Assembly: GCA_044221725.1 (NCBI GenBank)
Contig: JBGAON010000004.1
Location: 221,019-285,018 of the forward strand
DNA length: 64,000 bases
DNA from: Elusimicrobiota bacterium
Lineage (GTDB): Bacteria > Elusimicrobiota > Elusimicrobia > F11
Direction: 5' to 3'
The translations under genes and the position numbers were made by a program. Below are positions 3,153-34,696 of this stretch, piece after piece. Position 1 is the stretch's first letter, and each line of letters starts with the position of its first letter. The notes under the pieces were generated by a model. The model was not told the origin of the DNA. It was given only the letters and a program-made list of their open reading frames with translations, and ran no database searches.

Positions 3153-3189
3153 AATTGGCACGTTGTTACTCTACTTGTGAGGTCGCCTA

Positions 3190-5681: not shown

Positions 5682-5690
5682 GGAGGAGCA

Positions 5691-6583: not shown

Positions 6584-6795
6584 CGCGCCGCAGAAATCTT
6601 GTTTTTGCGGCCGGGGTGATTCTTTTCGCTTCACGACTGTTCGCAGGGACCTGCGCGATGTGCCGGCAAAATCTTGAGTCCGGTGGATCGGCTGGACTGG
6701 TAAAAGGAATCTACTGGAGCATCGTTGTGATTCTCGGTGTTCCGCTTGTAATTCTCGCGCTTGGCGTTCGTTACGCCTGGCGCCACTACAATTAA
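6580..6795 (+). CDS. 71-aa bitopic membrane protein with a CxxC motif, last gene of the cox operon
   Basis: ATG 6580 overlaps the subunit IV stop (ATGA). Sequence: MTRRRNLVFAAGVILFASRLFAGTCAMCRQNLESGG..IYWSIVVILGVPLVILALGV. I do not recognise a family. Confidence 0.5.
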   Translation: MTRRRNLVFAAGVILFASRLFAGTCAMCRQNLESGGSAGLVKGIYWSIVVILGVPLVILALGVRYAWRHYN

Positions 6796-6803
6796 TTATT
6801 TTT

Positions 6804-7571: not shown

Positions 7572-7642
7572 ACACCTTTAATACGAACGAGCGCGAGGGA
7601 ATGACGGAGAGAGATTGCTTGGATGAGAGGGATGGCCCCGAT

Positions 7643-12303: not shown

Positions 12304-12312
12304 CGCACGCTC

Positions 12313-13023
12313 TCACGTGTTCGGTCGAACCGCGAGCGACAAACGTTTTGGTCGCGTGAGCGCGGCGCCGCGTTGGCGGATCATTTTCATTTGTACGGAC
12401 AGCCCTTCGAGCAACTGCCACGAACTTGTGGGGTTTGTCCAATGGCTCGCGAGCGCGGACGTTTCGATGCACAGGTCGGCCGCCGTGCTCGCAATTCGGT
12501 GCGGCGAGAAAACAAACGCAATGCTGTCGTGTGTTTTCGTTTCGCGCGCGATGCGCCGCCATGCGGCGTCGTTCGTGGGGGCGAGCCTCATTGGTTTAAT
12601 CCCTAAGTCCAACATCACCATGCGGAAGCCGGCGTTCAGAACAATTTCGGTGCTTTTAAGCGCGTCGGTGAATTTCATGGGTCGCACCCAAAATACGTGC
12701 TCGAGTTGCACGCCCGCGTCTTGGGCGCCCGTCGGATCAAAATGATCGCCCCAATCGATGAGCGCGGCGTTTTCTCCGCTAGAGGTGGCCGCGGCCAAAA
12801 GCGCGATCTCCAGTGAAAATTTTCCGCTGGATCCGTTGCCGGTGATTTCGACGAGAGAGCCGCGCGGCAAGCCGCCGTTCAATTGATCGAACGCGGGCAC
12901 GCGGCTTAAAAAAACCGGGCGTTGATGTTCGGTGTGGCGGGCGTTTAAGAAATAACTTCCGGTGTTCAGGACGCTCGGTTCAAACGACGCCAACAACTTT
13001 GCTAATGATTCGGCCGTGTTCAT
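12313..13023 (-). CDS. imuA: ImuA-like RecA-fold/SulA-like mutasome subunit
   Basis: Contains LNGGLPRGSLVEITGNGSSGKFSLEIALLAAA. ATG 13023 with AAGGAA SD 7 nt upstream is preferred over the TTG at 13092. Confidence 0.8.
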   Translation of the reverse strand: MNTAESLAKLLASFEPSVLNTGSYFLNARHTEHQRPVFLSRVPAFDQLNGGLPRGSLVEITGNGSSGKFSLEIALLAAATSSGENAALIDWGDHFDPTGAQDAGVQLEHVFWVRPMKFTDALKSTEIVLNAGFRMVMLDLGIKPMRLAPTNDAAWRRIARETKTHDSIAFVFSPHRIASTAADLCIETSALASHWTNPTSSWQLLEGLSVQMKMIRQRGAALTRPKRLSLAVRPNT

Positions 13024-13041
13024 GCGATGATTCCTTGTGGC

Positions 13042-13060
13042 TCGAACCGAGGGTTTTCGA
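13042..13060. promoter_or_regulatory. palindrome TCGAA-N9-TTCGA immediately upstream of the imuA SD
   Basis: TCGAACCGAGGGTTTTCGA. Possible SOS/LexA-type operator. It does not match any canonical LexA box I know. Confidence 0.25.
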
Positions 13061-16587: not shown

Positions 16588-16598
16588 GAATTCGTTGA

Positions 16599-16817
16599 TT
16601 AGCGGTTTGTGGAGCCTGAGTTCGTTGTACCGGACGGCGACCCCGTGGGGCCAGAGGTGCCGGTATCGGAACCGGTGGTTCCGCCCGACGTGGGCGCTTG
16701 AGAGGTACCACCGTACCCCTGATTTTGGGTGGCGCTACCGGTATTGTTACTCGAACTCGGTTGGCAACCGGTAATGCCGATCGCGGCCAATGCCACAATT
16801 GTTAACAGTTTATTCAT
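16599..16817 (-). CDS. small S/T/G-rich lipoprotein
   Basis: Signal peptide plus lipobox in MNKLLTIVALAAIGITGC. The remainder is low-complexity. Confidence 0.6.
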   Translation of the reverse strand: MNKLLTIVALAAIGITGCQPSSSNNTGSATQNQGYGGTSQAPTSGGTTGSDTGTSGPTGSPSGTTNSGSTNR

Positions 16818-16875
16818 AAGACACTCCTTCGATTGACTGCTAACACTACGGATCGCGGGAACGGTGGTTCAGCGT

Positions 16876-18936: not shown

Positions 18937-19463
18937 AGCGCCCTCGCATTCGTCAGCGCGCGTTCGTGGGAGCGAATGGTTTCAAGCACCCAGTTCGAAT
19001 TGTTCGCGTGCAAAAGCGATTGCCGAAATTCTCGGTCTTGAAAAAGCGTGGCCGCGCCCGCGAGAAATGCGAGATGCATCTTCATGTCGTTTGCGGGTCC
19101 AACAAACAGCAAACAGAGCCGAGCCTCTTCGCTTTCGCTATTGGTTCCGTTCGACGGGGCAACGACACCGAACGCGCAGTGGATTCCGGTCAATCCCGGC
19201 ACGCGTGCGTGGGGGATCGCGATATCCTTATCCAGAATCGTTGAGCCGATTTGTTCGCGCGCAAGAACCGAACGAAGCGCAATGTCCGGTTCGGGCAAAT
19301 GAAGAACATCGATGAGTCGCGCAAAAATATCTTTCTTTGGAAGCCCGGCTGGCAAAAACAATATTTTCTCTAACGATAAAAAAGAACCAATGAGCGTCGT
19401 TTGTTCGTTCATCATCGGTACCGTGTGTGGTTCCTCTTTTTTCTGCTTAATAAACCAATTCAT
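18933..19463 (-). CDS. PTS EIIA type-2 (PtsN/EIIA-Ntr-like) domain protein
   Basis: Has the phospho-His signature DIAIPHARV. 176 aa. Confidence 0.8.
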   Translation of the reverse strand: MNWFIKQKKEEPHTVPMMNEQTTLIGSFLSLEKILFLPAGLPKKDIFARLIDVLHLPEPDIALRSVLAREQIGSTILDKDIAIPHARVPGLTGIHCAFGVVAPSNGTNSESEEARLCLLFVGPANDMKMHLAFLAGAATLFQDREFRQSLLHANNSNWVLETIRSHERALTNARAL

Positions 19464-19469
19464 AAAGGA

Positions 19470-19778
19470 CTACTTCCTGGAGGCCGCAGGAGTTTTTTCT
19501 GTCGGTGCGGCGGAACAGCTTTTGTCGGCCACGTTTTTTATTCGCCGTTGATCTTGCTCGAGACTTTTCACGACGCTGCTCAACAAGCGTTCTTGTTGTT
19601 CGAGTTGTTCGGTGACGCTATTAAAGCGCTGCACCGCCAGCGTGTCCGTGCGGGACGTATCGAACGCGGCTTTGGATTCGGGCGCGACGCTTGTCGATGG
19701 CGGGTACACCGCGGCCGCTGGGCGTGCAAAACCCATGGCCAATGCGCCTGCCGCGCAGATCAGAGATATTTTCTTCAT
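19470..19778 (-). CDS. secreted hypothetical protein (signal peptide plus coiled-coil)
   Basis: Starts MKKISLICAAGALAMGFARPAAA, followed by a helical Q/E-rich segment. Confidence 0.55.
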   Translation of the reverse strand: MKKISLICAAGALAMGFARPAAAVYPPSTSVAPESKAAFDTSRTDTLAVQRFNSVTEQLEQQERLLSSVVKSLEQDQRRIKNVADKSCSAAPTEKTPAASRK

Positions 19779-19882
19779 GGCTCCTCCTTAAATATGTGGG
19801 AACGCCTATGAAGTTAGCGCACGTCGCCGTAAGAACTCCATTACGAGGGTGTTACGAAACCGTTAATGCGGAGAACGGAAAT

Positions 19883-20578
19883 TTAGTCTTCGGATTCGAG
19901 ACGGTAACCGACGCCGGGCTCGGTTTTGAGGATTTGCGGCCGCACCGGATCGGCTTCGATGCGCTGACGGAGTTGATGAACAATGATGCGCACCGATTCC
20001 GGAGAGACATCGCGGCTTTCGCCCCACACGGTTTTGATCAGTTGCTGTTGGCTGACCACTTGCCCGGCGTGGCGCACGAGCGCCGCCAACAAATCAAACT
20101 GAAGCGGAGAAAGATGAATTTCCTTTTTCTTTAGAAACACGCGGTGGTTAACAAGGTCCACGCGTAGGCCCAAGTGTTCGTAAACGGGCGGAACGTCCTC
20201 CGGTTTTCGTTGCGAATGCCGCAGCGCAACGCGCAACCGCGCCATGAGTTCAGCAACACCAAACGGCTTCGTGAGATAATCATCGGCGCCCGCGTCGAGC
20301 CCGGCAATCTTGTCGGACTCTTGTCCACGCGCCGAAACAATAATGACTGGCGCGGACGTCCATTGCCGAAGTGTTTTCAATGTTTGAAGCCCATCTTGAT
20401 CCGGAAGTCCCAGATCCAAAAGAATCGCTTCCGGGCGGCAAGTGGCCGCGAGTTCGAGACCGCGTTTGGCGGTTTGCGCATCAATCATGTCCCATCCCGC
20501 TTGTTCCAACGACGACTTTAAGAATCGCAGGATCGCCGGTTCGTCTTCAATAACCAAAACGGTTTTGTCGTGTTTCAC
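19883..20578 (-). CDS. kdpE: OmpR-family response regulator, KdpE-like
   Basis: LLDLGLPDQDG, LRQWTSAPVIIVSARGQESDKIAGLDAGADDYLTKPFGVAELMARLRVALR tracks E. coli KdpE closely. Confidence 0.85.
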   Translation of the reverse strand: MKHDKTVLVIEDEPAILRFLKSSLEQAGWDMIDAQTAKRGLELAATCRPEAILLDLGLPDQDGLQTLKTLRQWTSAPVIIVSARGQESDKIAGLDAGADDYLTKPFGVAELMARLRVALRHSQRKPEDVPPVYEHLGLRVDLVNHRVFLKKKEIHLSPLQFDLLAALVRHAGQVVSQQQLIKTVWGESRDVSPESVRIIVHQLRQRIEADPVRPQILKTEPGVGYRLESED

Positions 20579-20582
20579 ACAT

Positions 20583-21686
20583 TTATTCCAACGGCAGCGT
20601 TATACGAAACATCGCTCCTCCGTTCGGATGGTTCTCTGCCCAGATACGCCCGCCGTGCGCGTTCACAATGGCGCGACAGATCGAAAGTCCAAGTCCCACG
20701 CCGGCGGAGGCCGGGTGCCGATAAAATTTGTCGAACACGCGCTCGAGATCGGTGATCGCGAGACCGTTGCCTTTGTCCATCACCATGATGGAGGCGGATC
20801 CGTTTTCGACTTTTGCGTCGATGGAGATTGGGACGCCGGCGGCTGTGTGCCGCGCCGCGTTCTCGAGCAAGTTCACGAACACTTGCTCCATGAGCAGGCC
20901 GTCCATTGGTACGGGCGGCAACGATTCATCGATTTGAACAGCGACCGTTCGATGGCTGAGCGTTTTTTTCAAACGTTCGAGTGCGGTGCCGATCACTTCG
21001 TCCAGCGGATAACGTTCTTTGCGTACGCGCAGCGCGCCCGATTCAAGCCGTGTTGTTTCGAGCAAGTTCTGCACTTGGCGCGAAAGATGTTCGGCTTCGT
21101 CTTCGATGGTTTCAAGAAGTTCGACCGCGGTGGTGTTTGAACGAACATCCGCGCGATCAAGCAGCGTGCTGGCCGACCCGACAATCGCTGTGAGCGGGGT
21201 GCGGAAATCATGCGAGATGGAACTTAACAGCGAATTCCGCAGCCGTTCCGTTTCAACTTCGATTTGGGCTTTCTTCGCTTTGGCTTCTTCTTGGCGCGCG
21301 AGTTCGGTTTGCGAACGCGAATGAATCGTGAGATGGCTGATGATCATGGCCACGATCAACATTGCAACAAACGTGAACACGTATTCGGCGTCGGCCACCG
21401 TAAGCGAGAACCGCGGCGGAACAAAAAAGAAATCGAAACACAAAACGCTGAGCACCGATGAAAAAATTGCCGGTCCGCGGTGCCCGCGCGCGGCGACGAA
21501 CACCGTGCCCAACAGATACAGCATGACGAGGTTAATGATATGGAAGTGCGCAAAGATACCGAACGAAACGGCGGTCGACGCGGCCGCAACGAGCGTAGCG
21601 AATCCGTATTCGCGAAGCCGGTTTTTCAAACGGGCTTCCGCTTTACATGGATCCTTTCGCTGAATTTCCAGCGACCAACAATTCAA
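20583..21686 (-). CDS. kdpD: sensor histidine kinase equivalent to the C-terminal half of KdpD (DUF4118 TM + HisKA + HATPase)
   Basis: TM bundle, then RNSLLSSISHDFRTPLTAIVGSAS. No KdpD N-terminal or Usp domain. The start is uncertain because the track ATG overlaps the upstream ABM gene by 44 nt. An in-frame TTG at 21629 is an alternative. Confidence 0.8.
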   Translation of the reverse strand: MNCWSLEIQRKDPCKAEARLKNRLREYGFATLVAAASTAVSFGIFAHFHIINLVMLYLLGTVFVAARGHRGPAIFSSVLSVLCFDFFFVPPRFSLTVADAEYVFTFVAMLIVAMIISHLTIHSRSQTELARQEEAKAKKAQIEVETERLRNSLLSSISHDFRTPLTAIVGSASTLLDRADVRSNTTAVELLETIEDEAEHLSRQVQNLLETTRLESGALRVRKERYPLDEVIGTALERLKKTLSHRTVAVQIDESLPPVPMDGLLMEQVFVNLLENAARHTAAGVPISIDAKVENGSASIMVMDKGNGLAITDLERVFDKFYRHPASAGVGLGLSICRAIVNAHGGRIWAENHPNGGAMFRITLPLE

Positions 21687-21960
21687 ACGTCACGATCTCC
21701 GGTGGCGCCGCAACCAGCGCGGGCACTTTCTTGAACAAGTCTTGAATGTGCGGCGTTTTGAGATGCGCGTCGAGCGCTTCTTTTGAAACCCAGCGTTCCA
21801 CCACAAGAAACGAAGCAGGATCCTCAATACCGCGGTGCACCGCGTAACGCAAACAACCGTGTTCGTCGTGCGTGGGCGGAACAACCGCGCGCAGCGCGGC
21901 CTCTAACTCTTTTTCCTTGCCGGGTTTTGCTTTTGCGCGTGCGGTGACAGTAACGTTCAT
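21643..21960 (-). CDS. antibiotic-biosynthesis-monooxygenase (ABM) domain protein
   Basis: ATG 21960 with GGAGG SD. Contains MNVTVTARAKAKPGKEKELEAALRAVVPPTHDEHGCLRYAVH..FLVVERWVSKEALDAH. Confidence 0.8.
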   Translation of the reverse strand: MNVTVTARAKAKPGKEKELEAALRAVVPPTHDEHGCLRYAVHRGIEDPASFLVVERWVSKEALDAHLKTPHIQDLFKKVPALVAAPPEIVTFELLVAGNSAKGSM

Positions 21961-22087
21961 GAAGGACCTCCGAAAGGTTTTGCTCGCGAACAACCAAAAA
22001 CGATTCGGCTTTATAGAAATTATTGATCGCTGTTGGATATTTCAAAATCGTGCTTGTTTTGCGAAGGTTCGCCGTTCATAATCTCCT

Positions 22088-23368
22088 ATGTCTTTTTCCG
22101 CACGTCCCGCGCCGCACAAATACGAGACTGTTTTCTGTATTTTCCTGGTGATGTTGGCGTTTCTGTATCGGGACAATCCGCATCTCGTTTATCCCCAAAT
22201 TCTGTACTTGTTTGTGACGCTGCTCGCACTGAACCTGTTCGCAAATTTTTGTTTGAAAAAATGGGGAAGTCGCGCCAGCGTGGCCGCGCTGTTTATTCTC
22301 GGAAATTGCGCAACGATCACGGCGATTCTTAATTTCTCCGGCAAAGACGAGTCCAACTTGTGGGTGCTTTTTCTGCTGCCCATTTACACGGTGTGCATGT
22401 TGCTGAACGGTCGTGAAGTGGTGTGGATTACGTTTGGTGTGATCAGTTTCAATTGGGCGTATCATCAATTTTCGATTGCGAATTGGGACGCCGAAACGAT
22501 GTTCTTTGTGTCGCTCAAAAGCGGCATTTTTATTTTTGCGGCCGTTGCCACGTGGTCCATCGCGAGCCGAGACCGCCGTGCGCGTGAGCGTGTGGCGCAT
22601 CAGAAAGTGGAACTCATCGAACTTGAGCAGCGGCTGAAAGAACAAGGGGACCAGGTGAGCCAGATGGAAAAAATGGCCGACATTGGGCAGCTCACGTCCG
22701 GCGTTGCGCACGATTTGAACAATCCAATCGCCGTGATTATCGGTACCGCCAAAATGTTGCTGGAAGAGGACGCGCTGGACCACTGGTTGCGCCCGGAGCT
22801 TGAACGAATTTTGCGCTCGGCCGATTTGTGTCGCGTGATCACGCTGAACCTGCTCGGTCTTGTGAAGCAAAACGAACTGTATTTTCAAATGCGCGACATC
22901 AACGAATTGATTGATTCCGTTCTGACATTGTACGGAAATACATTGGAACAATCGTCCATTAAAGTCGAAAAAAAATACGCGCCGGATTTGCCCGCTTTGG
23001 CCCTCAGTGAATCGCAATTGCAGCGCGTGTTCCTAAATCTTTTTGCAAACGCGCGCGCCGCCATGAAAGAGGGTGGAACGCTCACGCTCACCACGCGTTT
23101 TTTCGCGGGTCGTCGCCTGAACGAGGGGTCGATGGTGGAAATCACCGTCGAAGACACGGGGCCCGGAATTTCGGCCGATGCCATGCCGAAACTCTTCAAG
23201 CCTTTTAATACCACGAAAGGTCCCGATGGGAATGGTTTGGGCCTCTATATCAGTCGCGAGATCGTAAACAAACACAACGGCGTGTTGCAGGCCACCAATC
23301 GGTCGCAAGGTGGTGCGCGGTTTTCTATCTTGCTGCCCGCCGAACAACTGCAAGCGCTCGCCGCTTAA
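22088..23368 (+). CDS. membrane sensor histidine kinase
   Basis: About 5 N-terminal TM helices. HisKA motif SGVAHDLNNPIAVI, followed by an HATPase_c G-box region. Confidence 0.9.
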   Translation: MSFSARPAPHKYETVFCIFLVMLAFLYRDNPHLVYPQILYLFVTLLALNLFANFCLKKWGSRASVAALFILGNCATITAILNFSGKDESNLWVLFLLPIYTVCMLLNGREVVWITFGVISFNWAYHQFSIANWDAETMFFVSLKSGIFIFAAVATWSIASRDRRARERVAHQKVELIELEQRLKEQGDQVSQMEKMADIGQLTSGVAHDLNNPIAVIIGTAKMLLEEDALDHWLRPELERILRSADLCRVITLNLLGLVKQNELYFQMRDINELIDSVLTLYGNTLEQSSIKVEKKYAPDLPALALSESQLQRVFLNLFANARAAMKEGGTLTLTTRFFAGRRLNEGSMVEITVEDTGPGISADAMPKLFKPFNTTKGPDGNGLGLYISREIVNKHNGVLQATNRSQGGARFSILLPAEQLQALAA

Positions 23369-23392: not shown

Positions 23393-24413
23393 TAAGTGCA
23401 ACAGTAAGTAGTTGAGGAGTTGGTTATCCCTTTAAACTGAGGGATACCATGAAATACAAGCACTTAACCGACGGCGAACGAGAAACGTTGTCGTATATGA
23501 GAGCTTGTGGCAAATCGATACGAGAGGCAGCGTTCTATTTGAATCGAGCGCCCAGTACGATTGCCAGAGAAATACGGCGCAATAAGAGTCGAGCACGTTA
23601 TCGGTCCCATCTGGCCCATCGGGCTGCTATAGATCGACGCCATCAGACGCTCCGACGTCAACATCGGTTTAAAGCTGATCCTCAGCTGAGAGATCGTGTT
23701 ATCGAATGGCTTAAGGCAGGATGGTCCCCTGAGATTATCGCAGGCCGACTGAAGCGTGAAGCCCATGGCAAGTCCGTAATACATCATGAGACCATCTATC
23801 GTTGGATTTATCGATACGATCGATCTCTCATCAAGTGTCTCGTCCGATCACATCCTCGTCGGTATCGTCGTCATCAACGGCGCTGGCCGAATCGAATTAT
23901 CCCTCGACGGATTTCAATTCTCCAGCGCCCCGATTTCATTAACCAGCGCAAACAACCAGGGCATTGGGAATCTGACTTGGTGTGGGGATCTGGACGCGCT
24001 GCTCTGCAAGTGCTTGTCGAACGAAAAACCCGTTTCGTCTTTATTCGCAGAACCCGCAATAAATCCGCTCAAGCCAATTACGATGCGCTCTCTGAAGCAT
24101 TGGAACAAATCCCAACTTCTTTACGGCGCACCATCACGTATGATAATGGAAGCGAGAACACACTGCATTGTGAACTCAATGACCGTTTCCAACTGCAATC
24201 GTTCTTCTGTCAGCCGTATCACGCCTGGGAAAAGGGAACCGTAGAAAACACCAACGGTCTGATCCGTCGATACTTCCCCAAACGCACCAACTTCGATACC
24301 ATCTCAGTTCACCAAATCGAAGACGTTCAACGTCGCCTTAACAACAGACCTAGAAAATGTCTTCGCTTTCAAACAGCCGGGGAAGCCTATTCTTCCACCT
24401 TCCGTTGCACTTA
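23393..24413 (+). mobile_element. IS30-family insertion sequence, about 1.0 kb
   Basis: Terminal inverted repeats TAAGTGCAAC (23393-23402) and GTTGCACTTA (24404-24413). They match 10/10, or about 17/23 when extended by hand. They enclose a single DDE transposase. No target-site duplication was recognised. Confidence 0.8.
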
Positions 24414-24414
24414 A
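23449..24414 (+). CDS. IS30-family transposase
   Basis: 321 aa. N-terminal HTH (LTDGERETLSYM..GKSIREAA..STIAREIRRN). DDE region HWESDLV, YDNGSEN, WEKGTVENTNGLIRRYFPK. Confidence 0.95.
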   Translation: MKYKHLTDGERETLSYMRACGKSIREAAFYLNRAPSTIAREIRRNKSRARYRSHLAHRAAIDRRHQTLRRQHRFKADPQLRDRVIEWLKAGWSPEIIAGRLKREAHGKSVIHHETIYRWIYRYDRSLIKCLVRSHPRRYRRHQRRWPNRIIPRRISILQRPDFINQRKQPGHWESDLVWGSGRAALQVLVERKTRFVFIRRTRNKSAQANYDALSEALEQIPTSLRRTITYDNGSENTLHCELNDRFQLQSFFCQPYHAWEKGTVENTNGLIRRYFPKRTNFDTISVHQIEDVQRRLNNRPRKCLRFQTAGEAYSSTFRCT

Positions 24415-24496: not shown

Positions 24497-27400
24497 ATGC
24501 GAAGGTTCTTCCCTTTCCGTCGATCTTTTACGTTTTTTTTGGCCATGGTTATGTTCGCCACAAATGTTGTTTGGGCCCACCGCTTGCCTCTGGAAGCCGT
24601 CAATTCGCGCATAACGGTGCCAAACGAAATGGGTATCGTTCGCAATGTTTTCCCAGCGCTCCGTGCCAAACCCGCCAAAGGGATTGTTGTCCATATCCAA
24701 GATATTCACCGTCAAGCCGAAGCACAAGCAAACATCAGTCGCGCGCTCCAATATTTGTTCACGCATTCCAATGTTGGTTTCGTTGGAATCGAAGGCGCTT
24801 TTTCGGAGGTAGAGACGAAGCCATTCCGGAAACATTCGAACCAGCACGATCGGGCCATTGTCGCCGATTCTCTTTTGACCGATCAGAAAATCGCGGGCCC
24901 GTTGCATGCGGCGTTCGTCGGTTCGCCCGATATCCCGTTTATTGGCATTGATAACAGTGCGCTGTACGAAAGGAATCGGCGCGCGTTTCTCATCGCGTCA
25001 CGGCATAAATGCGTTTTGCAAGCCGAGGTTCGCGCGCAGCAAGCAAAGCTCGAGATTCAAAAGCGTCTGACGTTTAACCGGAAGATGCGGGAATTCGATG
25101 CAGCGGTTTCAACATACGACAACGGCCACATGTCGGCGGCGCAGTTCGTTCGCGTGCTCCAGCGAGCGCGCGCGCCGCTCACACCGTTGTTAAATAATTT
25201 TCTCAAAGGAGTATATCTCGAAACCGTTTTGCCGTTGGACGGCGTCACGAAAGATCGCGCCATGGCACTGGCCTATATCAATTACCGCCGCTCCGCGCAG
25301 GGCATCGACATTCGCCAACTTATGTCCGACATCGAATCCGCCAAAAAATCCACCTACGCCGCGTTGTGCAAATCTCAGCGCGAGCACAAAATGCTGGCGG
25401 TCCATCGGCGACTCTATTTGTTGAGGAAACTGGTTGACTTTTCGTTATCACGGGAAGAGTGGAAGGAATGGCAAAAGGTGCAGCGCACTTCGTGCGGTCT
25501 CCTACGAAAGCGTTCCGAAGCCAATCTGAGTTCTTTTGAGGATTTTTACCGGCAGGCCGAATCCCGGGACAATGCCATGGCGGAAAAATTTCTGGAAGAG
25601 ATACAGCGTACGAAGCACGCGGTACGCGGTACCTTTGTCTTAGTGACAGGAGGTTTCCATGCCGATGGCATTGACGCGGTCTTGCGCGACGCGGGTTACG
25701 AAGTCGTTGCATTCGTGCCGCGTGTTTCCAAACCAGATATAAGCGCGTCGTACTTGAACGCATTTCTCCGCGAGCAAACGCCGCTTGAAAAGCTCTTCCA
25801 CGGTGAAAGGTTGTTCCTTGCTGAACGGGTCGCCACAACCGAACAGAATGTTGAAGCGGGAATGTTGCTCATGGCGCAAGCTGTTTTCTCGCGTCGGTTG
25901 TCCTTTGTGCAGGCGTCGCAGCTTTTTGAACGAATCATGCGTTCGTTCCGGCAACCTATTGAAGTAAAGCTCCGCGTTCTTCATTCCGATTCAACGGCGA
26001 TCGCCGGACAAATCGAGCGAACCGGCTGGTTGTCCGCTCGTTTTCGAATTTCGCGAGATGAAAATATGCTTCACCTGGATTGGGTGAAACGCTCTGCGGT
26101 TGTTGGCGTTGTGACGCTTTTCGCTTTTGCTGTTGGGCGTCGACTGGTATTAACGATCGATGGCGCCACGCTCGCACAAATTTCCTGCGTCGTGCTGCTG
26201 GCGGCCGCCGTCCTTGTCCTGACCATAATGGTGGTGTGGTTTCCACCGCGCGGACCGCAAATGGCATTGGCCGGAGCGAGTAAGCTATTGCCAGTACGAA
26301 TTTCCGATTTGGTTGGAAAGACCAGTGAAGAGCTGGCAACAACGTGGGCGTCTGTTTTTGGTGAAAGTGACAAACAAGACACATCACGATCGCGAGAAAC
26401 ATCGACCCAGTCTGCGTGGCACGACATTCAAATCGATAACGCCGCAATCCAACAACATCTGAAGCGGTACCGTGCAATTGTCACGACGTTGGAAAATTAT
26501 CTTAAGCAACATACCGCAAAAAAAATGCCGGATTTGGAGCAAGCCTTAAAAGACGCTGGCGTTAATGAACACTATCCGGATTTTCATCTCAGCGAATGGA
26601 CGGCCGCGCTGCCGACGCTCGATGTTGATCGAATTCTCGCAAACGTCTTTGACGATCTTGAAGAGCAAATCTGCTATCCACGCGGGTTTTCGGTGGATGG
26701 GCCAACGAACATGTTTCGGCTGTCGCGTTGGAAAGAGATTGTCACGCCGCTCGGACGTAAGATTCGCCTTTATGAAGTCGACTTGGGTTCGTTGCAAATT
26801 GGCTCGACGCTCACGAACCGATACCGCGCGCATTCGATTATCGCGGTTTCCGGTCTGCGCAACGAGTTCTTAAGAAAAATGCGTACGAATCGATCGCCTT
26901 ACATTGACACGTTAAAGAACACAAGTGGGTTCGAGGACTATGACCCGGATGCTGTTATCAACGATGCGTACGGAAACAGTTCCGATATGGAGGCCATTTT
27001 GCAAATGCATCCTTATCTGCGGACTGGCAACTGGCGTGGAGCGGTGCTAAAAGATTCCGGCGTCTTGAAAAGCGCGGCGATCGGAGACCCGTCGTTATGG
27101 ACGGTCGCGGCCCGCGTGCTGTTCCATGTCTTCTCGCAACCGCGCAAATTCAATCTGGCGCTCCTGCTCGATGGCTTGAATAACATGCGGTCCATTCTGC
27201 CGCGCGATTATCTTTTCGCCGAGCCGTTGTTGAGAATTATGTGGCCGGACTGGGATGGAAAAGGCAATGCGATTGATGTGTTGGAAGAGCACTTTCGTCG
27301 AAATCCGCCCGCGTTCGCGATGGTCGTTAAAGAGGCGATTCTGGATTACTACAGACAAGAACTTCCGTCTGAAGAAGAGCTGGCCAGATTGGTTACCACC

Positions 27401-30400
27401 ACCGAGCGCGTGTATTTTCCTCGACTTCAACGTGCTTATGAGCAGATGGTCCTGATGGCGTCCCACCCGAAACCGGACCCCGCGCGGCAATTGGCTTCCG
27501 AGAATGAATTCCTGCCAGCGTTGCTGGATTCGTTGCGAATGGTGGCCGCGAATAACACCATCCAGCCATTGGAAAATCTTTTGCCGATGGACGAGACTCT
27601 GATGTCTCCGTGGGACAAGGTGCAGTGGCAACGAACCCTCACTTTGCTCCGACGAGCGATTAATTGGTGGAGCGGCCGAGAGGCGGATGGCTATCAGGCC
27701 ATCTATTCGTTTCGTGTGTTGCTGGCCACGATCAACGAATTGTGGTTAATCCCGCGACGCGAGTTGCTTGTCGGAATCGACACAAACGGTTCTATTGATA
27801 TCCCCAACGAGCGGTTTGCCGTCGGTGCTATCGTTGGTGATGAGTTGCCGAGCACAACGGTCGACAATTTTTCGTTACGCACGTTTCTTGTCGATTTGCC
27901 CGACGCGCTTGCGAATACTTTATCGTACGGCGTATTCGTGGTGGATCTGCGGCCGGCTCCGTCGTACGTGGTCGCTGATCGGAAGTCCGCTGCAAAATTT
28001 ATTCGTGATTTTCAGTCCGATCCCGAAGTGATTGCCATTGCTACTCGGTGGGCGACGGAACGTGGTCTCGTGGTGGACAATGCGGCAACAGTTTATCTGG
28101 TTGCGCTTCAGCAATTCTATTTCCTGAACTATTTGTTTGTGTGGTGGCTTCAGCAGGCACACAATCGATATCTCCATCACTGGGCCGTGTTGCCCGCCGC
28201 AGCGCTGTGCGCTATTCCGTCGAATATCGTTTTGGCGTTGCCAACCCTCTGGGCGTTGGAGAAAAACCGTGCATTCGACCAAGTGCGCGGATACACAAGC
28301 CCAGAATTTATCCTGGGTTTGGAAAGGATTTATGCGGCGTTTGCCGACGCGTTCGGAATAAAGGTGGATATTCGACGAGATGGTCCGGCAGAAGTGACCC
28401 GGGCTTTGGAAGCAAGCAAAGAAAACCCGTTGCGAAGGATGACGCAGGCCGCCGCGCTGAAATTAGCCGAAATCGGTCACCTACCAAAAATAGGATTTTC
28501 TGCCTGGCCTGCCGTGGTGGCGGCATTCGCCCCCCTATCGCCAACAATAGTTAAGGTCCATTTGCAGATTGTGAATGAGCGGGATATTCCGGCGCCCACA
28601 CCGCCGACCCGAATTTACGCGATGGCGGCGGCGTCTCGTTCCGCTCCGGAGCTGGAGACAGTGTCGCGCTCGCAGGTCCATTCGCAGGGGGTCACCATGC
28701 GTATCGTTGATGAGCTAAGCTTTCTTCTGAACGATATTGCGACCGTCGGTGATGTCGACGTCGACATCGCAAAAAAAGAGGATAAGGCATCCGAAAAAAA
28801 TCAGGTTGCCTATATCACGGACGAACACGGAAGCGACAGGCTCGTGATCAAAGTGGGCACTGCGTTCGCAAGCAAAAACGACGACGAGACCGTGTTGGCG
28901 GTTCTTACCCGGGTTCGAACACAAATATCAAACGCGCTCCAATCCCCCTATCAGCAATTGCCCGTTTTGCTGCACGGTGCCATCAATAGGCTTTTCGAAA
29001 ATGCGGACCAACCGTTTGAGGTTTTTGGACCAGCGATAAATACGTTCCCATCCGGAGAAAGAAAAAAACTTCGATGGTTGGATAAAGAGCTGGGAAAAGC
29101 ATGCGCTGTGTGGATGCCGCAAACAAAACAAAATAGATTTTTGTTGGCATCGTTTGCCGCGCGTTGGCTCAATGAAAACCACCTGCTCGATCGTGCGCAT
29201 ATTCTTGTTCCATTGGGCGAAAAGCGTGCAGGCGTTCCGCATTTTCTTTATTTGCCTGTTGCGTACGCCGCCGGCCATTTTGCCGGGCGGCCTGTCTGTT
29301 ACGTTTCTAATCTTGAAACAGGTGTGGCGGTGAATGCCACGCTAAATTCCGCGTTGCATCTGATCATTATTTCGACGGATCAGATTCCAATCGAACGCGA
29401 TGAGTACCATCGCAAAATAAAGGAACTTCCGGTGAAGCCCGATAATCGCCTGGCCGCGGTGAGTTTCATTCTTGCGGGCGTTCTTCTAAAAGATGCAACA
29501 GAAAAAATGTCATCGCTGGAAAAGCGCCGGTTTTATGATGAAGCTTTTTACTCACTGAGCACCGGTCGGCACGGTCTGGCCGGCATCGATGACGCGCAGG
29601 CCAATTTCGCGCTTTCATACTTCTTGATCCCTTCGTTGGGCCAAAACAAAAGTCTGCTCGGTTATTCTCTCGTTATTTGGTCGCTGGTGTTGCTTCATCA
29701 TGTGGTACACAAAGAGGATCAGTCGATTCACACGTTTGCAAAGCAGATCGGCTCTGTCGCGCAAATATTGAATGAAATGCTCGGTGGGGTCGTCGCTGGT
29801 ACGTCCTCGGCGGAATCGATGCTGCACGCGATGGGCCACGTCGATGACGGTGCCCTCGTCGCGCTCGGTGATAAACTGGCTGCGAAATTGGATCCGTTGT
29901 TGCAACGGTACGGAATGCACGCCGACGTCGCTGAAGCGCAAGCTTTGTTCGCGAAAACAACCGTCGTCAAAATTGCCGGTGCCGATAACAAGTCGTTGCC
30001 GGTTGTGGGCTTCGCGCCGATTCTTTCCCCGGCGGCCCCGTCGTTGCACACAACGCAGCACGATTATAAGAAGGATCAGGACCCGGAAAAGAAAAAGAAG
30101 AAACAGCCGGAGAGTAAAATTACCGACCGGGTTTTACCGGAAAAGATATCTGAGGATATTCAGGCACTTGCGATGTTCGCAGGTCCGAACGAATCGGATT
30201 GGCCGGCCGTCGCAATTGATTATGGTCTCGATTATTCGGCTCAAGACCTCCACGAGTTGTACGGACTTTACACAGAAGATCACCGCTTCGAAGGCTTGCG
30301 TTCGGAGTATCCTGGGCACGAAACGATTGCAGCGTTGATTGGTGTGTTTGGATTCAATGCCGAAGAAATTGGAAAACACCGGCACGTTGCAGCAGGAACT

Positions 30401-33400
30401 GCTCATACGTGGTTCACTGATTTTGTGCGAAATATTTACCGCAAAAATCCCAACGTCACAACTTGGACCAATGATGAATGCGGCGGGCACGCAGCGGAGG
30501 CTCAAGAGATTTTCCGCACGGAACCCAATCTCGAATCGCTTCGGTACGAAGCGCCTGGCGCGAGAGATTTGGTGGCGCTGGCAAAGGCATCCGAATTCGA
30601 TGCCGATAAATTCGCCGTGCTGCGAGGAAAAGGAGTATCGACAAAAAAGGCTCATCGATGGCTTCGCGAATACGTGGAGGACCGGTACAACCGAGACGGT
30701 CACAATATATTGCCGTGGGAGACGGATCCTGATTTTGGCAAGCCAGCCATAAAATTCTTTCTTAACGATCCTGAATTGGCGCTCGCGCGTGTTCTGCAAC
30801 CCGGTAATAAAGATATGTTGGCACTGCTGATGCAAACGAAAGCCAACGCGAACGCAATCGCAACGCTCCGTGGAGCCAATGTCAAAGACGTTCGTGGTTG
30901 GATCACAAATTTTTTGATCAACGATCCGGTTTGCCGCGGTCGCGTGAAAGAAATGGCTCTGAAATGCGGCCTCACCGTGGATGAAATAAGCCAAGGTCTC
31001 CTTGATTCAAAATTGGAAGACGTCGCGCTAAAAGTGCGCCAGCAACGCCCCACCGAGGACCAATTGAGGTCGATCATTCAATTGCTGAAAGGGAGTCTCG
31101 TCGCGGTAGCCGATGCGTACGACGTGGAACCGATTGTTGTGTACAAATGGGTTCACGATCCGGCGTTCTCGAATTGCGCGGCGAATTATCGGGATAAATA
31201 TTTCAATGACGACAAAGTTGTCGGCCGTTGGCGAACCTTTTATCGCGGAAATCTCAAGCCGGTGGCTCACGCGTTGGGTTGGTCCGAAGCGCAGATTGAT
31301 CACCTCAACAAAAAGAAAATGGCATCCCTCGCGCTTCGCCGCGCCCAAGGGCTTGGGCTCGACATGTTGCGGATTTTGGATGCTCTGTATAACAACGCTG
31401 AATTGCGTAACGATCGAGCAGAGATTCTTACCTGGCTCGCTGCTCACTGCGACGATTTGTTTAGACGAAACGAATTGGGGCAACCGGAAATTCACCAACA
31501 AGTCGGAAGTATTGTTGCGCCTATCGCGTGGCCAGACGAACGCCACAAAATTGAACGCGCTTACAAAATAACCGCTTTTTCGGTGGCCGGTTACAAAGAC
31601 GCACCGAACTTTTCAATCGCGGCCGACAACGTTGCGTTTGATTTCGTCGTTGAATCCAATGCGTTTCCATTTTTGCATTGGACTCGGCTCATCGTACAAG
31701 GCGGCGTTCCGTCCACAATTGAAGTCGAGGCGTTGCCCGACAACAAATGGCGTATCAGTGGGTCGGTGCTTCTTACGGATCGTAAGCCCGGCGCGGTGAG
31801 CGACCTTCGATTTTGTCTCGTCGACGATTCCATTGACGCATCGGGCCCGGTGTTCGGTCCGATTGCTTCAGCAACAGTACGATACGTCGGCGAGGACAAG
31901 TTGAACCGCACAAGCGCGCGCGTGCAATTGGAGTTCTGGCAAGACCGGCTTGTGCCGCGCACAGAGAACGATCGTTCTCGCGTGATCCGAAAACTAAAAG
32001 AAAACGTCGAGCGTATCCTCATGGCCGATTTTCAAGAAGACCGCACCAGGGGTTTCGCCGAATTGGATCGGCTTATCGAAATTCAACGCGCGGACGTTCG
32101 GCTCTACATGGATGAAAACAACGTGCTTGGCCCCAATCGAGATCATGTGAATTATTTTTATATCGAAGGTAATGAAACAGTGGGACGGCTTAAAGCTGTT
32201 GAGCCGGACACCGCATTGGGTTTCGATCGTAACTTTGAAGCGCTGGTGGACGCGTTGCGCATCCTGCTGGAAATTCGTTCAGAATGGATTGATGTGGAAT
32301 CTTTCAAATTACCGGAATTGAAAGCGGGCATTGAGCATAGTTATCCGCAAAGAGTGGCGGCCGTAAAACTGTTTAAAAAAGTGACCGGCGCGATGGTGGA
32401 CGTCAATGTGGGCGAAGAGCTCGTGGTCGCTGGCCTTGCTGTTGATCGTATGGCGCATGGTTTGTCCGCGATGGACATCCCAGCCGGTGGACACGCGGTC
32501 ATTGTCGTTAACCCGTTGCACAAAAACAAATGGATCAAAGCATTTGAATCTTATGAGCGGCCTACGAGATTTCTCGATTTAACCGGAAAAACAGCCGAGC
32601 GCACAAAGGCGTTAAAGAAATTTGAGAGCGATGCGACAACGCCGCACGTTATTTTCGTTACCCAAGATTATTTGAGATCGCTTGAAAAGGGCCGCACGTC
32701 TCATCCCGCGGTGTCGTTGATTCGCACCAATTTATGCGTCGTTGTTATTACGGGCGCGCAAACGTTGGGCGCATCGGATTCCACTCTCGCCGAGTCTGTC
32801 CGCAAATTTGTGCCGACAGATAAGCGCGTGCCGGTGGTTATTGTCGCCTCTCCAGCGGCGCAGCACGAACTTGGGGCGCTTGACCGCGTGTTGGCTTTTA
32901 TTCGCGAGATGACGGGACTTACAGTCGGGCGTAGAAGCATTAAAGCGGCGTCCGATATTTTGAAGCCGCAGCGCCTGGCGGGCTTGCAAGATTTGCTGAA
33001 CGAACGGCTCGTTTATCTCGATCCGCAAAAAATCTTTAAACCGTTCTCGTCGGAACATCCACACGAAGCGGATCGAATGCCCGAGATTGTCTACGAAACC
33101 AAAACTTACGAGATGCCGTTGTCATTGATGACACGATTGCTTGGTGTGCGCGCCGATCCTGCCAACAAAAAAAGCTACGTGCTCGGAGAAAACAAGCTGC
33201 GCGATGTGCTCGGCGATTTGTCCATTGAAAATTTAAAAATAGGATTGCTTCGTGATGTGATCGAAGAAGAGCGGCAGCACCACGGTCAAGCCAAAGTGGC
33301 GGTCGTTACACGCCGTCAAGATACAGTGGCGCACATCCTCGCCACGTTTGGCGATGCTGCGGTAGGGCTCGCCGAAGAAGCGACAATTCGGAAGGTTCAG

Positions 33401-34696
33401 CGGAGTTATATTGTTGCAGCAAAGAACTCTCAATTGGAAGCAAACATAGATGTATTTAAAACCCGTCCGAATGTTCACGTGATCGCTATGACAATGGACA
33501 CAGGGACAAAACATGGCAATTTGGAAATGCCAAACGCGACCTGTGTGGTGTATTGGGATCCGCCCCGTTCCGCAAACGACCTCGCCGCGGTGTTGCATGG
33601 TGTGTCTCCCGGCGCGCCAACACTGCGTTTTCGTATTGTTAATTTCGCGGCAACTTACAATGAGCAAGCCATCGCAAACCATGGCGTTGGGTTGGGTCCG
33701 CTTGCGTTCCGAACATTCTTCGACGCATACGAGCGCGTGCGGTTTCAACGCGTTCGCAATTTGATGCGCATCGCGGCCGAATTGCTTGATTTGCATTTTA
33801 CCGAAGGCGAAGCGGGCGGTTGGGTGCAAGACAAACTGGATCTTTTGAAAATGCTTGTTGAGCAGTTAAAAGATAGCGGCGCGGTCCCCGACGTGCCCGT
33901 GGAGCAAGTGGATCACAGTGCCGGATTGACGCGGTCTCAGAAGGACGAGGTGTACGCCGAAGTGGCGCGGCTGTTCGAATATCAGCGAACACACACAAAC
34001 AAGCCGAACTTGGTGGAAGTGCGAAATGAGGCAACCAATGCTCTGCGAGAAGTTTTCATGTCCGCGGATAACAAAGAGTTGTCATTCCTCACGCACATTC
34101 AGCAAGAAATTGATGAGGGAAGCGTGGATTTCGATGCGATACCGTTGCTGCGAAACTGGACAGCTTTTTTTAAGAGCTTGGTTGAATCCGGGTTTGACGT
34201 GAACGATCGGCTGGCCGTTTTGCATCACATGCACGAAGAAAAACAGTTGCAATGGGGGCAGCTGATCCCTTCGCAAAAATTCAGCAGTGGGAAGAAATCA
34301 TTCGAATTTGCGTACGATCAGCGGCACGAAATCAGAAAGTTGGGGGGTGCCGATGTTTTGTTGCATTTGTTCAACCAAGCCTATCCGCACCTGAAAGTGA
34401 GTGAATTGAATGCGAAGGCGCTTCAACTGTTGATGCAGCATGCGGATCGGTTCTGGACGTCCGGCGATTGGCCAGAATTCATTAGGCATCTCATTGAAGT
34501 TACGAGCCGTATGTTGGAGAAAAAACGGATTGTCGAACAGTTGAATCAATCAGCGGATGGAAATGGTAACGATCACGCGACCGATAATGGCGCGGAGAAC
34601 GGAAACGGTTTGTCGATCAACGATCTGGTTGCGCCGGCCACAAAAGCGCCAATTATTTCTGTCCATGACGACCAACAAGTCCGTGCCGCCGCATAA
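24497..34696 (+). CDS. giant (3,399 aa) membrane-anchored protein of unknown function with a mosaic domain content
   Basis: Uninterrupted 10.2-kb ORF. It has an N-terminal hydrophobic signal/anchor and a strong TM at about 26180-26242. It also has the TIKI/TraB-like motif pair, the HTH-like module array and the degenerate SNF2 ATPase scaffold described in findings. Confidence 0.85.
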   Translation: MRRFFPFRRSFTFFLAMVMFATNVVWAHRLPLEAVNSRITVPNEMGIVRNVFPALRAKPAKGIVVHIQDIHRQAEAQANISRALQYLFTHSNVGFVGIEGAFSEVETKPFRKHSNQHDRAIVADSLLTDQKIAGPLHAAFVGSPDIPFIGIDNSALYERNRRAFLIASRHKCVLQAEVRAQQAKLEIQKRLTFNRKMREFDAAVSTYDNGHMSAAQFVRVLQRARAPLTPLLNNFLKGVYLETVLPLDGVTKDRAMALAYINYRRSAQGIDIRQLMSDIESAKKSTYAALCKSQREHKMLAVHRRLYLLRKLVDFSLSREEWKEWQKVQRTSCGLLRKRSEANLSSFEDFYRQAESRDNAMAEKFLEEIQRTKHAVRGTFVLVTGGFHADGIDAVLRDAGYEVVAFVPRVSKPDISASYLNAFLREQTPLEKLFHGERLFLAERVATTEQNVEAGMLLMAQAVFSRRLSFVQASQLFERIMRSFRQPIEVKLRVLHSDSTAIAGQIERTGWLSARFRISRDENMLHLDWVKRSAVVGVVTLFAFAVGRRLVLTIDGATLAQISCVVLLAAAVLVLTIMVVWFPPRGPQMALAGASKLLPVRISDLVGKTSEELATTWASVFGESDKQDTSRSRETSTQSAWHDIQIDNAAIQQHLKRYRAIVTTLENYLKQHTAKKMPDLEQALKDAGVNEHYPDFHLSEWTAALPTLDVDRILANVFDDLEEQICYPRGFSVDGPTNMFRLSRWKEIVTPLGRKIRLYEVDLGSLQIGSTLTNRYRAHSIIAVSGLRNEFLRKMRTNRSPYIDTLKNTSGFEDYDPDAVINDAYGNSSDMEAILQMHPYLRTGNWRGAVLKDSGVLKSAAIGDPSLWTVAARVLFHVFSQPRKFNLALLLDGLNNMRSILPRDYLFAEPLLRIMWPDWDGKGNAIDVLEEHFRRNPPAFAMVVKEAILDYYRQELPSEEELARLVTTTERVYFPRLQRAYEQMVLMASHPKPDPARQLASENEFLPALLDSLRMVAANNTIQPLENLLPMDETLMSPWDKVQWQRTLTLLRRAINWWSGREADGYQAIYSFRVLLATINELWLIPRRELLVGIDTNGSIDIPNERFAVGAIVGDELPSTTVDNFSLRTFLVDLPDALANTLSYGVFVVDLRPAPSYVVADRKSAAKFIRDFQSDPEVIAIATRWATERGLVVDNAATVYLVALQQFYFLNYLFVWWLQQAHNRYLHHWAVLPAAALCAIPSNIVLALPTLWALEKNRAFDQVRGYTSPEFILGLERIYAAFADAFGIKVDIRRDGPAEVTRALEASKENPLRRMTQAAALKLAEIGHLPKIGFSAWPAVVAAFAPLSPTIVKVHLQIVNERDIPAPTPPTRIYAMAAASRSAPELETVSRSQVHSQGVTMRIVDELSFLLNDIATVGDVDVDIAKKEDKASEKNQVAYITDEHGSDRLVIKVGTAFASKNDDETVLAVLTRVRTQISNALQSPYQQLPVLLHGAINRLFENADQPFEVFGPAINTFPSGERKKLRWLDKELGKACAVWMPQTKQNRFLLASFAARWLNENHLLDRAHILVPLGEKRAGVPHFLYLPVAYAAGHFAGRPVCYVSNLETGVAVNATLNSALHLIIISTDQIPIERDEYHRKIKELPVKPDNRLAAVSFILAGVLLKDATEKMSSLEKRRFYDEAFYSLSTGRHGLAGIDDAQANFALSYFLIPSLGQNKSLLGYSLVIWSLVLLHHVVHKEDQSIHTFAKQIGSVAQILNEMLGGVVAGTSSAESMLHAMGHVDDGALVALGDKLAAKLDPLLQRYGMHADVAEAQALFAKTTVVKIAGADNKSLPVVGFAPILSPAAPSLHTTQHDYKKDQDPEKKKKKQPESKITDRVLPEKISEDIQALAMFAGPNESDWPAVAIDYGLDYSAQDLHELYGLYTEDHRFEGLRSEYPGHETIAALIGVFGFNAEEIGKHRHVAAGTAHTWFTDFVRNIYRKNPNVTTWTNDECGGHAAEAQEIFRTEPNLESLRYEAPGARDLVALAKASEFDADKFAVLRGKGVSTKKAHRWLREYVEDRYNRDGHNILPWETDPDFGKPAIKFFLNDPELALARVLQPGNKDMLALLMQTKANANAIATLRGANVKDVRGWITNFLINDPVCRGRVKEMALKCGLTVDEISQGLLDSKLEDVALKVRQQRPTEDQLRSIIQLLKGSLVAVADAYDVEPIVVYKWVHDPAFSNCAANYRDKYFNDDKVVGRWRTFYRGNLKPVAHALGWSEAQIDHLNKKKMASLALRRAQGLGLDMLRILDALYNNAELRNDRAEILTWLAAHCDDLFRRNELGQPEIHQQVGSIVAPIAWPDERHKIERAYKITAFSVAGYKDAPNFSIAADNVAFDFVVESNAFPFLHWTRLIVQGGVPSTIEVEALPDNKWRISGSVLLTDRKPGAVSDLRFCLVDDSIDASGPVFGPIASATVRYVGEDKLNRTSARVQLEFWQDRLVPRTENDRSRVIRKLKENVERILMADFQEDRTRGFAELDRLIEIQRADVRLYMDENNVLGPNRDHVNYFYIEGNETVGRLKAVEPDTALGFDRNFEALVDALRILLEIRSEWIDVESFKLPELKAGIEHSYPQRVAAVKLFKKVTGAMVDVNVGEELVVAGLAVDRMAHGLSAMDIPAGGHAVIVVNPLHKNKWIKAFESYERPTRFLDLTGKTAERTKALKKFESDATTPHVIFVTQDYLRSLEKGRTSHPAVSLIRTNLCVVVITGAQTLGASDSTLAESVRKFVPTDKRVPVVIVASPAAQHELGALDRVLAFIREMTGLTVGRRSIKAASDILKPQRLAGLQDLLNERLVYLDPQKIFKPFSSEHPHEADRMPEIVYETKTYEMPLSLMTRLLGVRADPANKKSYVLGENKLRDVLGDLSIENLKIGLLRDVIEEERQHHGQAKVAVVTRRQDTVAHILATFGDAAVGLAEEATIRKVQRSYIVAAKNSQLEANIDVFKTRPNVHVIAMTMDTGTKHGNLEMPNATCVVYWDPPRSANDLAAVLHGVSPGAPTLRFRIVNFAATYNEQAIANHGVGLGPLAFRTFFDAYERVRFQRVRNLMRIAAELLDLHFTEGEAGGWVQDKLDLLKMLVEQLKDSGAVPDVPVEQVDHSAGLTRSQKDEVYAEVARLFEYQRTHTNKPNLVEVRNEATNALREVFMSADNKELSFLTHIQQEIDEGSVDFDAIPLLRNWTAFFKSLVESGFDVNDRLAVLHHMHEEKQLQWGQLIPSQKFSSGKKSFEFAYDQRHEIRKLGGADVLLHLFNQAYPHLKVSELNAKALQLLMQHADRFWTSGDWPEFIRHLIEVTSRMLEKKRIVEQLNQSADGNGNDHATDNGAENGNGLSINDLVAPATKAPIISVHDDQQVRAAA

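Follow-up and report, generated by a model that had tools for sequence, protein, structure and literature searches.

Does the giant open reading frame (ORF) in this stretch of DNA encode the remains of an SNF2-type motor, and if so, has the domain been kept for something other than catalysis? The stretch, called the window throughout, comprises 64,000 nucleotides of contig JBGAON010000004.1 (positions 221,019 to 285,018) from the Elusimicrobiota bacterium assembly GCA_044221725.1. Motor chemistry is the defining feature of SNF2 ATPases, and a preliminary description of the window had proposed that the segment 32414-33650 (+ strand) holds an SNF2 scaffold in which every catalytic motif is substituted. 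That segment lies in frame with the giant ORF, and all of the peptides quoted from it are present in the translation. The coordinates given for them were essentially right, with two corrections: the stretch VIAMTMDTGT...HGVS spans 33479-33607, so that its end was correct and its start had been misplaced at 33551, and LAVDRMAHGLS begins at 32435.

Based on the comparisons below, amino acids (aa) about 2615-3100 (nucleotides about 32339-33800) most likely form a two-lobe RecA-like module that derives from an SNF2-family (superfamily 2, SF2) ATPase and no longer binds or hydrolyses ATP. The module has probably persisted over a long period as a pseudo-ATPase with a non-catalytic role. The ORF and the part of it on which the analysis depends are as follows.

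24497-34696, + strand, giant ORF of 3,399 codons that carries the SNF2-like module, from the translation
31409-33814, + strand, C-terminal block, aa 2305-3106, conserved with a gene on metagenome contig L001 (protein P0082; 24% identity over 871 aa)

A single homolog of the module

An exhaustive HMMER scan of 1.84 billion representatives returned two proteins only, P0081 and P0082. The top match, P0081 (expectation value, E, 2e-14), is a 10-fold repeat protein in which one 74-aa stretch was matched repeatedly, and we rejected it as repeat-inflated. P0082 is a true homolog, with a pairwise BLASTP E of 7e-35. A giant gene on the 429-kb contig L001 is divided among five consecutive, same-strand, partly overlapping calls, and P0082 is the product of the last of them. 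N-terminal, middle and C-terminal blocks follow in matching order in this gene and in the window ORF, so that the two are collinear, and the module within P0082 is uninterrupted.

Word-indexed homolog searches with the region and with the two-sequence alignment returned nothing, and scans of genome, metagenome and viral collections with protein-derived patterns and the peptide VERI[LM][LM]ADF found no further relatives. Weak matches of P0029 and P0041 to the motif Ia region proved on inspection to be unlike SNF2 modules. A match to a MarR-like repressor in the PDB single-sequence search (E 0.0015, 54 aa, inter-lobe region) was treated as chance.

Profile-profile comparison with the SNF2 core

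The query (A2) was the two-sequence alignment of window aa 2583-3110 with L001. As the reference, we used an SNF2 profile of 36 sequences, comprising 35 viral-contig ORFs found with a DNA pattern for DEAHx[LIV]KN and E. coli RapA; since selection was pattern-based, the GKT and DEAH columns of this set are invariant by construction. A search of viral contigs for reference loci with RapA and P0048, a relative of the window protein with an intact SNF2 domain, as seeds gave nothing. The three reference members tested with Pfam all showed SNF2-rel_dom and Helicase_C.

In hhalign, A2 matched the SNF2 profile with a Prob of 96.7 and an E of 3.4e-10 in local mode (score 82.0, 337 columns), and with a Prob of 98.0 and an E of 1.3e-12 in global mode. 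Motifs Ia, II, III, LP, IV, V and VI were collinear between query and profile, in canonical order and spacing, so that the segments which the preliminary description had assigned to motifs Ia, II, III, IV, V and VI do fall on the corresponding SNF2 motifs. The score decreased to 18.1 when the query was reversed, and averaged 15.3 (maximum 25.5) in 40 column shuffles and 20.1 (maximum 28.9) in 40 shuffles of 15-column blocks. Each homolog also matched the profile on its own, the window sequence in lobe 2 (E 9.8e-5) and the L001 sequence in both lobes (E 5.4e-5). Lobe 2 of the query alone matched at the right profile positions with an E of 3.5e-8.

The best match to any single SNF2 sequence, P0048 and RapA included, had an E of 0.006. 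Considering that none matches better than this, the module is equally distant from all single SNF2 sequences. The SNF2 relationship is visible only by profile-profile comparison and not by curated hidden Markov models (HMMs).

Predicted structure and the case for a chance resemblance

Two models of the module were made with AlphaFold2 (AF2). The model built without an alignment had a predicted local distance difference test score (pLDDT) of 37.8 and no Foldseek match under E 0.038; it was unusable and was kept as an internal control. The model built with the two-sequence alignment (pLDDT 43.4; predicted template-modelling score, pTM, 0.32) presented strand-helix alternation at the aligned motifs, and a Foldseek search of the PDB with this model gave 272 matches at E<=0.001. 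Ranks 1-23 are all SNF2 remodellers (SMARCAD1, ALC1, ISW1, CHD1, CSB, SNF2h, INO80, BAF and Mot1; E 1.6e-9 to 1.1e-7, template-modelling (TM) score ~0.24), other SF2 helicases (LGP2, Hef, XPB) occur from rank 24 on, and RapA is found at rank 25. Amino-acid composition does not drive these matches, because the single-sequence model of the same residues yields none at E<=0.001. We regard the ranking as supportive of an SNF2 fold, not decisive.

A number of results weigh against an SNF2 origin. No SNF2, Helicase_C, ResIII or DEAD match was obtained at E<=10 in Pfam, NCBIfam, PADLOC or PHROGs with the region, the C-terminal 1,168 aa, the whole ORF or P0082, and single-sequence and profile searches of PDB sequences gave no SF2 match for the module. 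HMMER comparison with SNF2_N and Helicase_C had been named as a check in the preliminary description; judged by that check the SNF2 idea would have failed, as nothing appears even at E<=10. The module family has two members only (window and L001), which makes for a thin profile with an effective sequence number (Neff) of 1.5. Both AF2 models are of low confidence, and the TM-scores of the Foldseek matches are low as well. Lobe 1 alone matches the SNF2 profile at the right positions (E 5.9e-4) with a Prob of only 29%, which is weak, and the inter-lobe helical segment alone has no SNF2 signal (E 0.52), though the full alignment spans this region and retains the LP block. Alignment confidence is low around motif I. 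Nucleic-acid or protein binding by the module and its expression are putative, as is the side of the membrane on which it would lie.

The empty library and PDB sequence searches, the limit of E 0.006 for single SNF2 sequences and the low AF2 confidence are also what would be seen if an unrelated alpha/beta domain, by its alternation of strands and helices, mimicked the SF2 motif spacing by chance. However, against a score of 82 for the real query, none of 80 shuffles, including block shuffles that preserve local patterns, exceeded 28.9, and the window and L001 sequences match the SNF2 profile independently and collinearly. DEAD-box and SecA profiles, which have equal alpha/beta periodicity, give no match, and the top Foldseek matches are uniformly SNF2. 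A chance resemblance is thus quite improbable and already largely refuted. Three independent results, namely the profile-profile match, the first 23 Foldseek ranks and the SNF2-typical non-catalytic positions retained in both homologs, support the SNF2 ancestry that had been proposed.

Catalytic and structural positions, motif by motif

In SNF2 ATPases, motif I binds the ATP phosphates, motif II activates water and Mg, and motif VI senses the gamma-phosphate. The segments of the window aligned with these and the other SNF2 motifs are listed below.

32339-32374, + strand, SYPQRVAAVKLF, against the SNF2 'L..yQ..gv.wl' block upstream of motif I (global hhalign, low confidence)
32378-32401, + strand, KVTGAMVD, aa 2628-2635, against motif I DEMGLGKT (global hhalign, low confidence; the local alignment stops short of it)
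32435-32467, + strand, LAVDRMAHGLS, aa 2647-2657, in a 14-17-residue insertion missing from L001
32495-32554, + strand, motif Ia strand and helix, AVIVVNPLHKNKWIKAFESY (hhalign)
32735-32770, + strand, motif II strand, CVVVITGAQTLG, with TGAQ at 32750-32761
32834-32902, + strand, motif III and following helix, VVIVASPAAQHELGALDRVLAFI; L001 counterpart LALTRVTAISGIGPLLTLLNFV
32903-33292, + strand, inter-lobe helical region including MPEIVYETKTY, against the SNF2 'LP.k' block (hhalign)
33293-33340, + strand, motif IV at the start of lobe 2, KVAVVTRRQDTVAHIL (hhalign)
33434-33553, + strand, 'id.F' block and motif V, LEANIDVFKT..VIAMT MDTGTKHGNLEMPNATCVVY (hhalign)
33554-33649, + strand, 'WNP' block, motif VI and last strand, WDPPRSANDLAAVLHGVSPGAPTLRFRIVNFA (hhalign)

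The preliminary description had placed motif I at LAVDRMAHGLS. This peptide lies inside the insertion that has no counterpart in L001, and in the global alignment, which has low confidence here, motif I falls on KVTGAMVD, some 19 residues closer to the N-terminus, so the earlier placement was abandoned; LAVDRMAHGLS is probably a helix or loop behind the degenerate P-loop. At the aligned position L001 reads SPWDARVS, and the Walker A Lys is replaced by Val in both homologs, while the Thr is replaced by Asp in the window and by Ser in L001. In the preceding 'L..yQ..gv.wl' block, the window retains Q2618, for which L001 has E. The pattern [AG]xxxxGK[ST] is absent throughout the 3,399-aa protein and P0082. 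The only GKT of the region, at aa 2697-2699, was considered as a shifted Walker A and rejected: it aligns to the strand after motif Ia, has no upstream G/A and is RGT in L001.

At motif II, DEAH has become TGAQ in the window (from T2752) and AGAH in L001, with both acids lost. The Q/R/R of motif VI correspond to A3031/G3035/P3038 in the window and to I/Q/P in L001, and the 'WNP' block before it reads RSA and RNP, respectively. The G-rich loop of motif V is partly lost (TGTKHGN in the window, WGDKGN in L001). The claim that the catalytic residues are gone therefore stands: neither motif I position holds GK[ST], DEAH is TGAQ, and the motif VI arginines are replaced.

The remaining blocks retain structural positions. 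Motif Ia aligns as AVIVVNPLHKNKW in the window and AIIVVDGNLMIEW in L001, and W2679 after it is kept in both homologs and present in 89% of the SNF2 reference sequences. Motif III aligns as VASPAAQHELGAL and LTRVTAISGIGPL, respectively. The 'LP' block is MP in the window and LP in L001, with P2862 retained in both; motif IV is KVAVVT and KFLVVT, with the initial K in both; and the 'id.F' block is IDVF and RRRF, with F2987 retained in both. Among the 61 SNF2 columns with at least 60% conservation, the window retains 12 and L001 retains 17, and these are hydrophobic or structural, except the Ala (both homologs) and the His (L001) of DEAH.

The module might still be an active nucleoside triphosphatase, with non-canonical residues or with a nucleotide site completed by a partner. 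Its conservation across a long divergence fits this, as do the residues that L001 retains (the A and H of DEAH, the N and P of 'WNP' and the Ser at the Walker Thr position) and the stray GKT of the window, which lies behind a strand. However, the motif I Lys, both motif II acids and both motif VI arginines have given way to non-equivalent residues in both homologs, the GKT is misplaced as described above, and the giant protein has no other P-loop, which makes residual activity highly improbable. From the sequence, neither DNA-stimulated ATPase activity nor translocase activity is predicted. Since the module lacks the catalytic motifs and reaches none of the curated HMM thresholds, SNF2 ATPase is not an appropriate annotation for it.

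Conservation of the substituted module

The preliminary description had left it to homologs to tell recent decay from a conserved pseudoenzyme. An SNF2 cargo domain left as a remnant in neutral drift inside the giant gene would suit the orphan state of the family, which has two members, the IS30-type transposase directly upstream and the SNF2 cargo of the paralog P0048, with its intact GLGKT, DESQ and GR..R. The 10.2-kb frame of the giant ORF is, however, open throughout, and the L001 homolog has an uninterrupted module that is substituted at the motif positions lost in the window and shares its hydrophobic core; neutral drift over such a distance would have wiped out both the profile signal and the reading frame. 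Recent decay is disfavoured because the catalytic positions are also replaced in a homolog of only 24% identity, and we consider it exceedingly improbable. The substitutions shared with that homolog fit a conserved pseudoenzyme instead: in the two sequences, catalytic residues are lost, the residues of the fold and the frame are kept, and the diverged homolog is alike in these respects.

It is extremely unlikely that the module is a divergent DEAD motor of the SecA type (PF07517/PF21090) or some other SF2 helicase outside SNF2: although divergent SecA DEAD domains are reported in most giant Omnitrophota proteins (bioRxiv 10.1101/2023.11.21.568195) and the paralogs P0026, P0030 and P0044 carry SecA_DEAD, A2 did not match a SecA-like profile of the P0030/P0044/P0026 domains (E 0.83; SNF2 profile against the same profile 1.2e-4, as a positive control) or a DEAD-box (PF00270) profile (E 0.063, score 22.8, inside the shuffle range; SNF2 against DEAD-box 2.2e-15, as a positive control), and LGP2, Hef and XPB follow the SNF2 remodellers in the Foldseek ranking.

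The giant protein and its family

The other features of the giant protein are the following.

24614-25846, + strand, N-terminal module, aa about 40-450, similar to 79 giant Elusimicrobiota/Omnitrophota proteins
26096-26236, + strand, two strongly hydrophobic segments, aa 534-552 and 562-580 (Kyte-Doolittle scans)
30287-31159, + strand, 4-5 tandem helix-turn-helix (HTH)-like repeats of ~50 aa each, aa 1931-2221, conserved with L001

The gene call in the protein collection (P0001, 100% identical) begins at M17 and thus comprises 3,383 aa. A whole-protein search identified 79 relatives of 1,900-5,900 aa; those with names are mostly from Elusimicrobia/Elusimicrobiota, with some from Omnitrophota. 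Every alignment to them is confined to query aa 3-635, mainly aa 40-450, and phmmer found no similarity between aa 600-3399 and the 79 relatives. Within the N-terminal module, Pfam gave a weak ChaN/Tiki match (PF04187, aa 327-390). The domains downstream of the module are mutually unrelated among the relatives and include sigma-70, SecA_DEAD, GNAT, PEP-utilizers, kinases, glycolytic enzymes and, in P0048, an intact SNF2. The window protein has what sets this family apart: it is very long, it is homologous to the others over its N-terminal ~450 aa, and the domains that follow are unrelated to theirs. No description of the family was found in the literature searched.

The hydrophobic segments at aa 534-580 are likely the membrane anchor of the giant protein. 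Other candidate segments in the Kyte-Doolittle scans are at aa 10-28, 1230-1248 and 1719-1737, with none C-terminal of these. Based on these features, the SNF2-like module appears to belong to the variable 'cargo' of a giant protein anchored in the membrane, from a mostly Elusimicrobiota family whose members have only the N-terminal module in common.

The HTH-like repeats follow the pattern R..PG....AL...NA..iA.LRG..V....W...f and have no Pfam match. Directly upstream of the pseudo-SNF2 core, a beta-rich segment is followed by the conserved helical stretch ENVERILMADF (aa about 2355-2535, window 31559-32100). This segment is conserved with L001, has no family match and could be an accessory domain comparable to the N-terminal domains of RapA. 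The C-terminal tail (aa about 3110-3399, window 33830-34693) is helical-looking with an Asn/Gly/Asp-rich low-complexity end, and shows no similarity to L001 or any library.

Comparison with known systems

The module resembles the SNF2 core (PF00176 and PF00271; E. coli RapA/HepA, phage SNF2 helicases, ISWI/CHD1/ALC1) in its two-lobe layout and collinear blocks. Common to both are Ia ('..IV.P....W..e'), the II strand, III and its helix, 'LP', IV ('Kv.V.t'), 'id.F', V, 'd..wnP' and the VI strand, and SNF2 remodellers are the closest structural neighbours of the low-confidence model. Unlike the SNF2 core, the module is without Walker A, DExH and the motif VI arginines, falls below all curated HMM thresholds, has no inter-lobe helical SNF2 signal and lies C-terminally in a 3,399-aa membrane-anchored protein.

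P0048 (3,644 aa, SNF2 cargo at aa 1862-2309) belongs to the same N-terminal family as the window protein and also carries an SNF2-type domain in its variable region, and the two SNF2-type domains match each other weakly in a local alignment around motif V (E 0.073). In contrast to the window module, P0048 retains GLGKT, DESQ, SAT, AGGVG and Q..GR..R and scores above the Pfam thresholds. Viral SNF2 sequences are all at least as close to the window module, so that P0048 does not stand out as its direct ancestor.

Arabidopsis MOM1 has a degenerate, CHD3-derived helicase domain, an incomplete remnant that was reported to be dispensable for silencing (PMC3276543). Compared by description only, MOM1 is, like the giant protein, large and equipped with a degenerate SNF2-derived domain lacking the remodeller catalytic motifs, and so provides a precedent for an SNF2 pseudo-enzyme. 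Whereas MOM1 is eukaryotic and nuclear with an incomplete remnant, the window module is in a bacterial, membrane-anchored protein, has both lobes complete and is conserved in two distant homologs. Pseudohelicases are also described in yeast Utp25 (PMC9539457) and Deinococcus radiodurans PriA (PMC4504706); in both, the helicase fold is retained, the ATPase motifs are lost and the use is structural or for binding, as proposed for the module. Utp25 (DEAD-box-like) and PriA belong to SF2 families other than SNF2 and are not within giant membrane proteins.

Giant Omnitrophota proteins have been described as membrane-associated mosaics of enzyme-like domains with divergent SecA DEAD modules (bioRxiv 10.1101/2023.11.21.568195; 10.64898/2026.06.07.730766). 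The window protein is like them in length, membrane association and mosaic domains, and several relatives of its N-terminal module are from Omnitrophota. The published proteins differ in exceeding 30,000 aa and in having SecA-type domains, whereas the window module matches no SecA-like profile, and a term search of both preprints found no mention of SNF2. Within the limited collection of literature searched, we found neither a bacterial SNF2 pseudo-ATPase nor a description of this module; MOM1 was the SNF2-derived precedent found. While helicase pseudo-enzymes are already known, a bacterial SNF2-derived case is new relative to that literature.

Possible role of the module

A module of this kind would act as a static binding platform instead of a motor. 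It might clamp double-stranded nucleic acid in the surviving inter-lobe cleft, together with the upstream tandem HTH-like repeats, or serve as a docking scaffold for a partner protein. Considering what SNF2 cores do, static binding of duplex nucleic acid or protein docking would be the likeliest role, and by this analogy a binding or scaffold function is plausible. The HTH-like repeats may tip the balance towards nucleic acid, although they offer only a lead. The C-terminal third of the protein is more likely to be cytoplasmic, because the cargo of the paralogs, for example sigma factors and kinases, is of a cytoplasmic type.

Taken one step further, the C-terminal third, with its HTH-like repeats, beta-rich domain and dead SNF2 clamp, could be an ATP-independent DNA holder at the membrane that tethers the chromosome or foreign DNA, or a binder of extracellular DNA if the C-terminus lies outside the cell, where there is no ATP. 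This picture is speculative and rather unlikely; if true, such a membrane DNA-holding or extracellular DNA-binding device would be a new bacterial use of the SNF2 fold.

A complete two-lobe SNF2 core without any catalytic motif, conserved between distant bacteria, would be a rare pseudo-enzyme. It also gives a testable prediction, ATP-independent DNA or protein binding, for one part of a 3,399-aa protein whose role is otherwise unassigned. Since Pfam, NCBIfam, PADLOC and PHROGs all miss the module, more domains that are degenerate but still recognisable to profile-profile or structure methods may be hidden in giant bacterial proteins, most of whose length is unannotated.

Genes around the giant ORF and on L001

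The genes around the giant ORF are ordinary bacterial genes. Upstream are two histidine kinases and the IS30-type transposase, with DnaE further upstream, and downstream are MsrB, an L,D-transpeptidase, an M15 peptidase, SerRS and acetyl-CoA synthetase. The closest of these are located as follows.

23449-24414, + strand, IS30-type transposase (HTH_38 and rve), ending 83 bp 5' of the giant ORF start codon
35275-37886, + strand, L,D-transpeptidase (Scaffold, PG_binding_1 and YkuD) and M15-type peptidase, directly downstream of the giant ORF

The L,D-transpeptidase and the M15-type peptidase are cell-wall enzymes, and no connection to the giant protein is evident. L001 carries two giant genes of the N-terminal-module family in tandem, at 1148-13051 and 15346-23051. 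Both are broken into several consecutive same-strand calls, and this splitting probably reflects sequencing frameshifts. The second of them (15346-23051) has a ChaN-like N-terminus and a PEP-utilizers_C domain.

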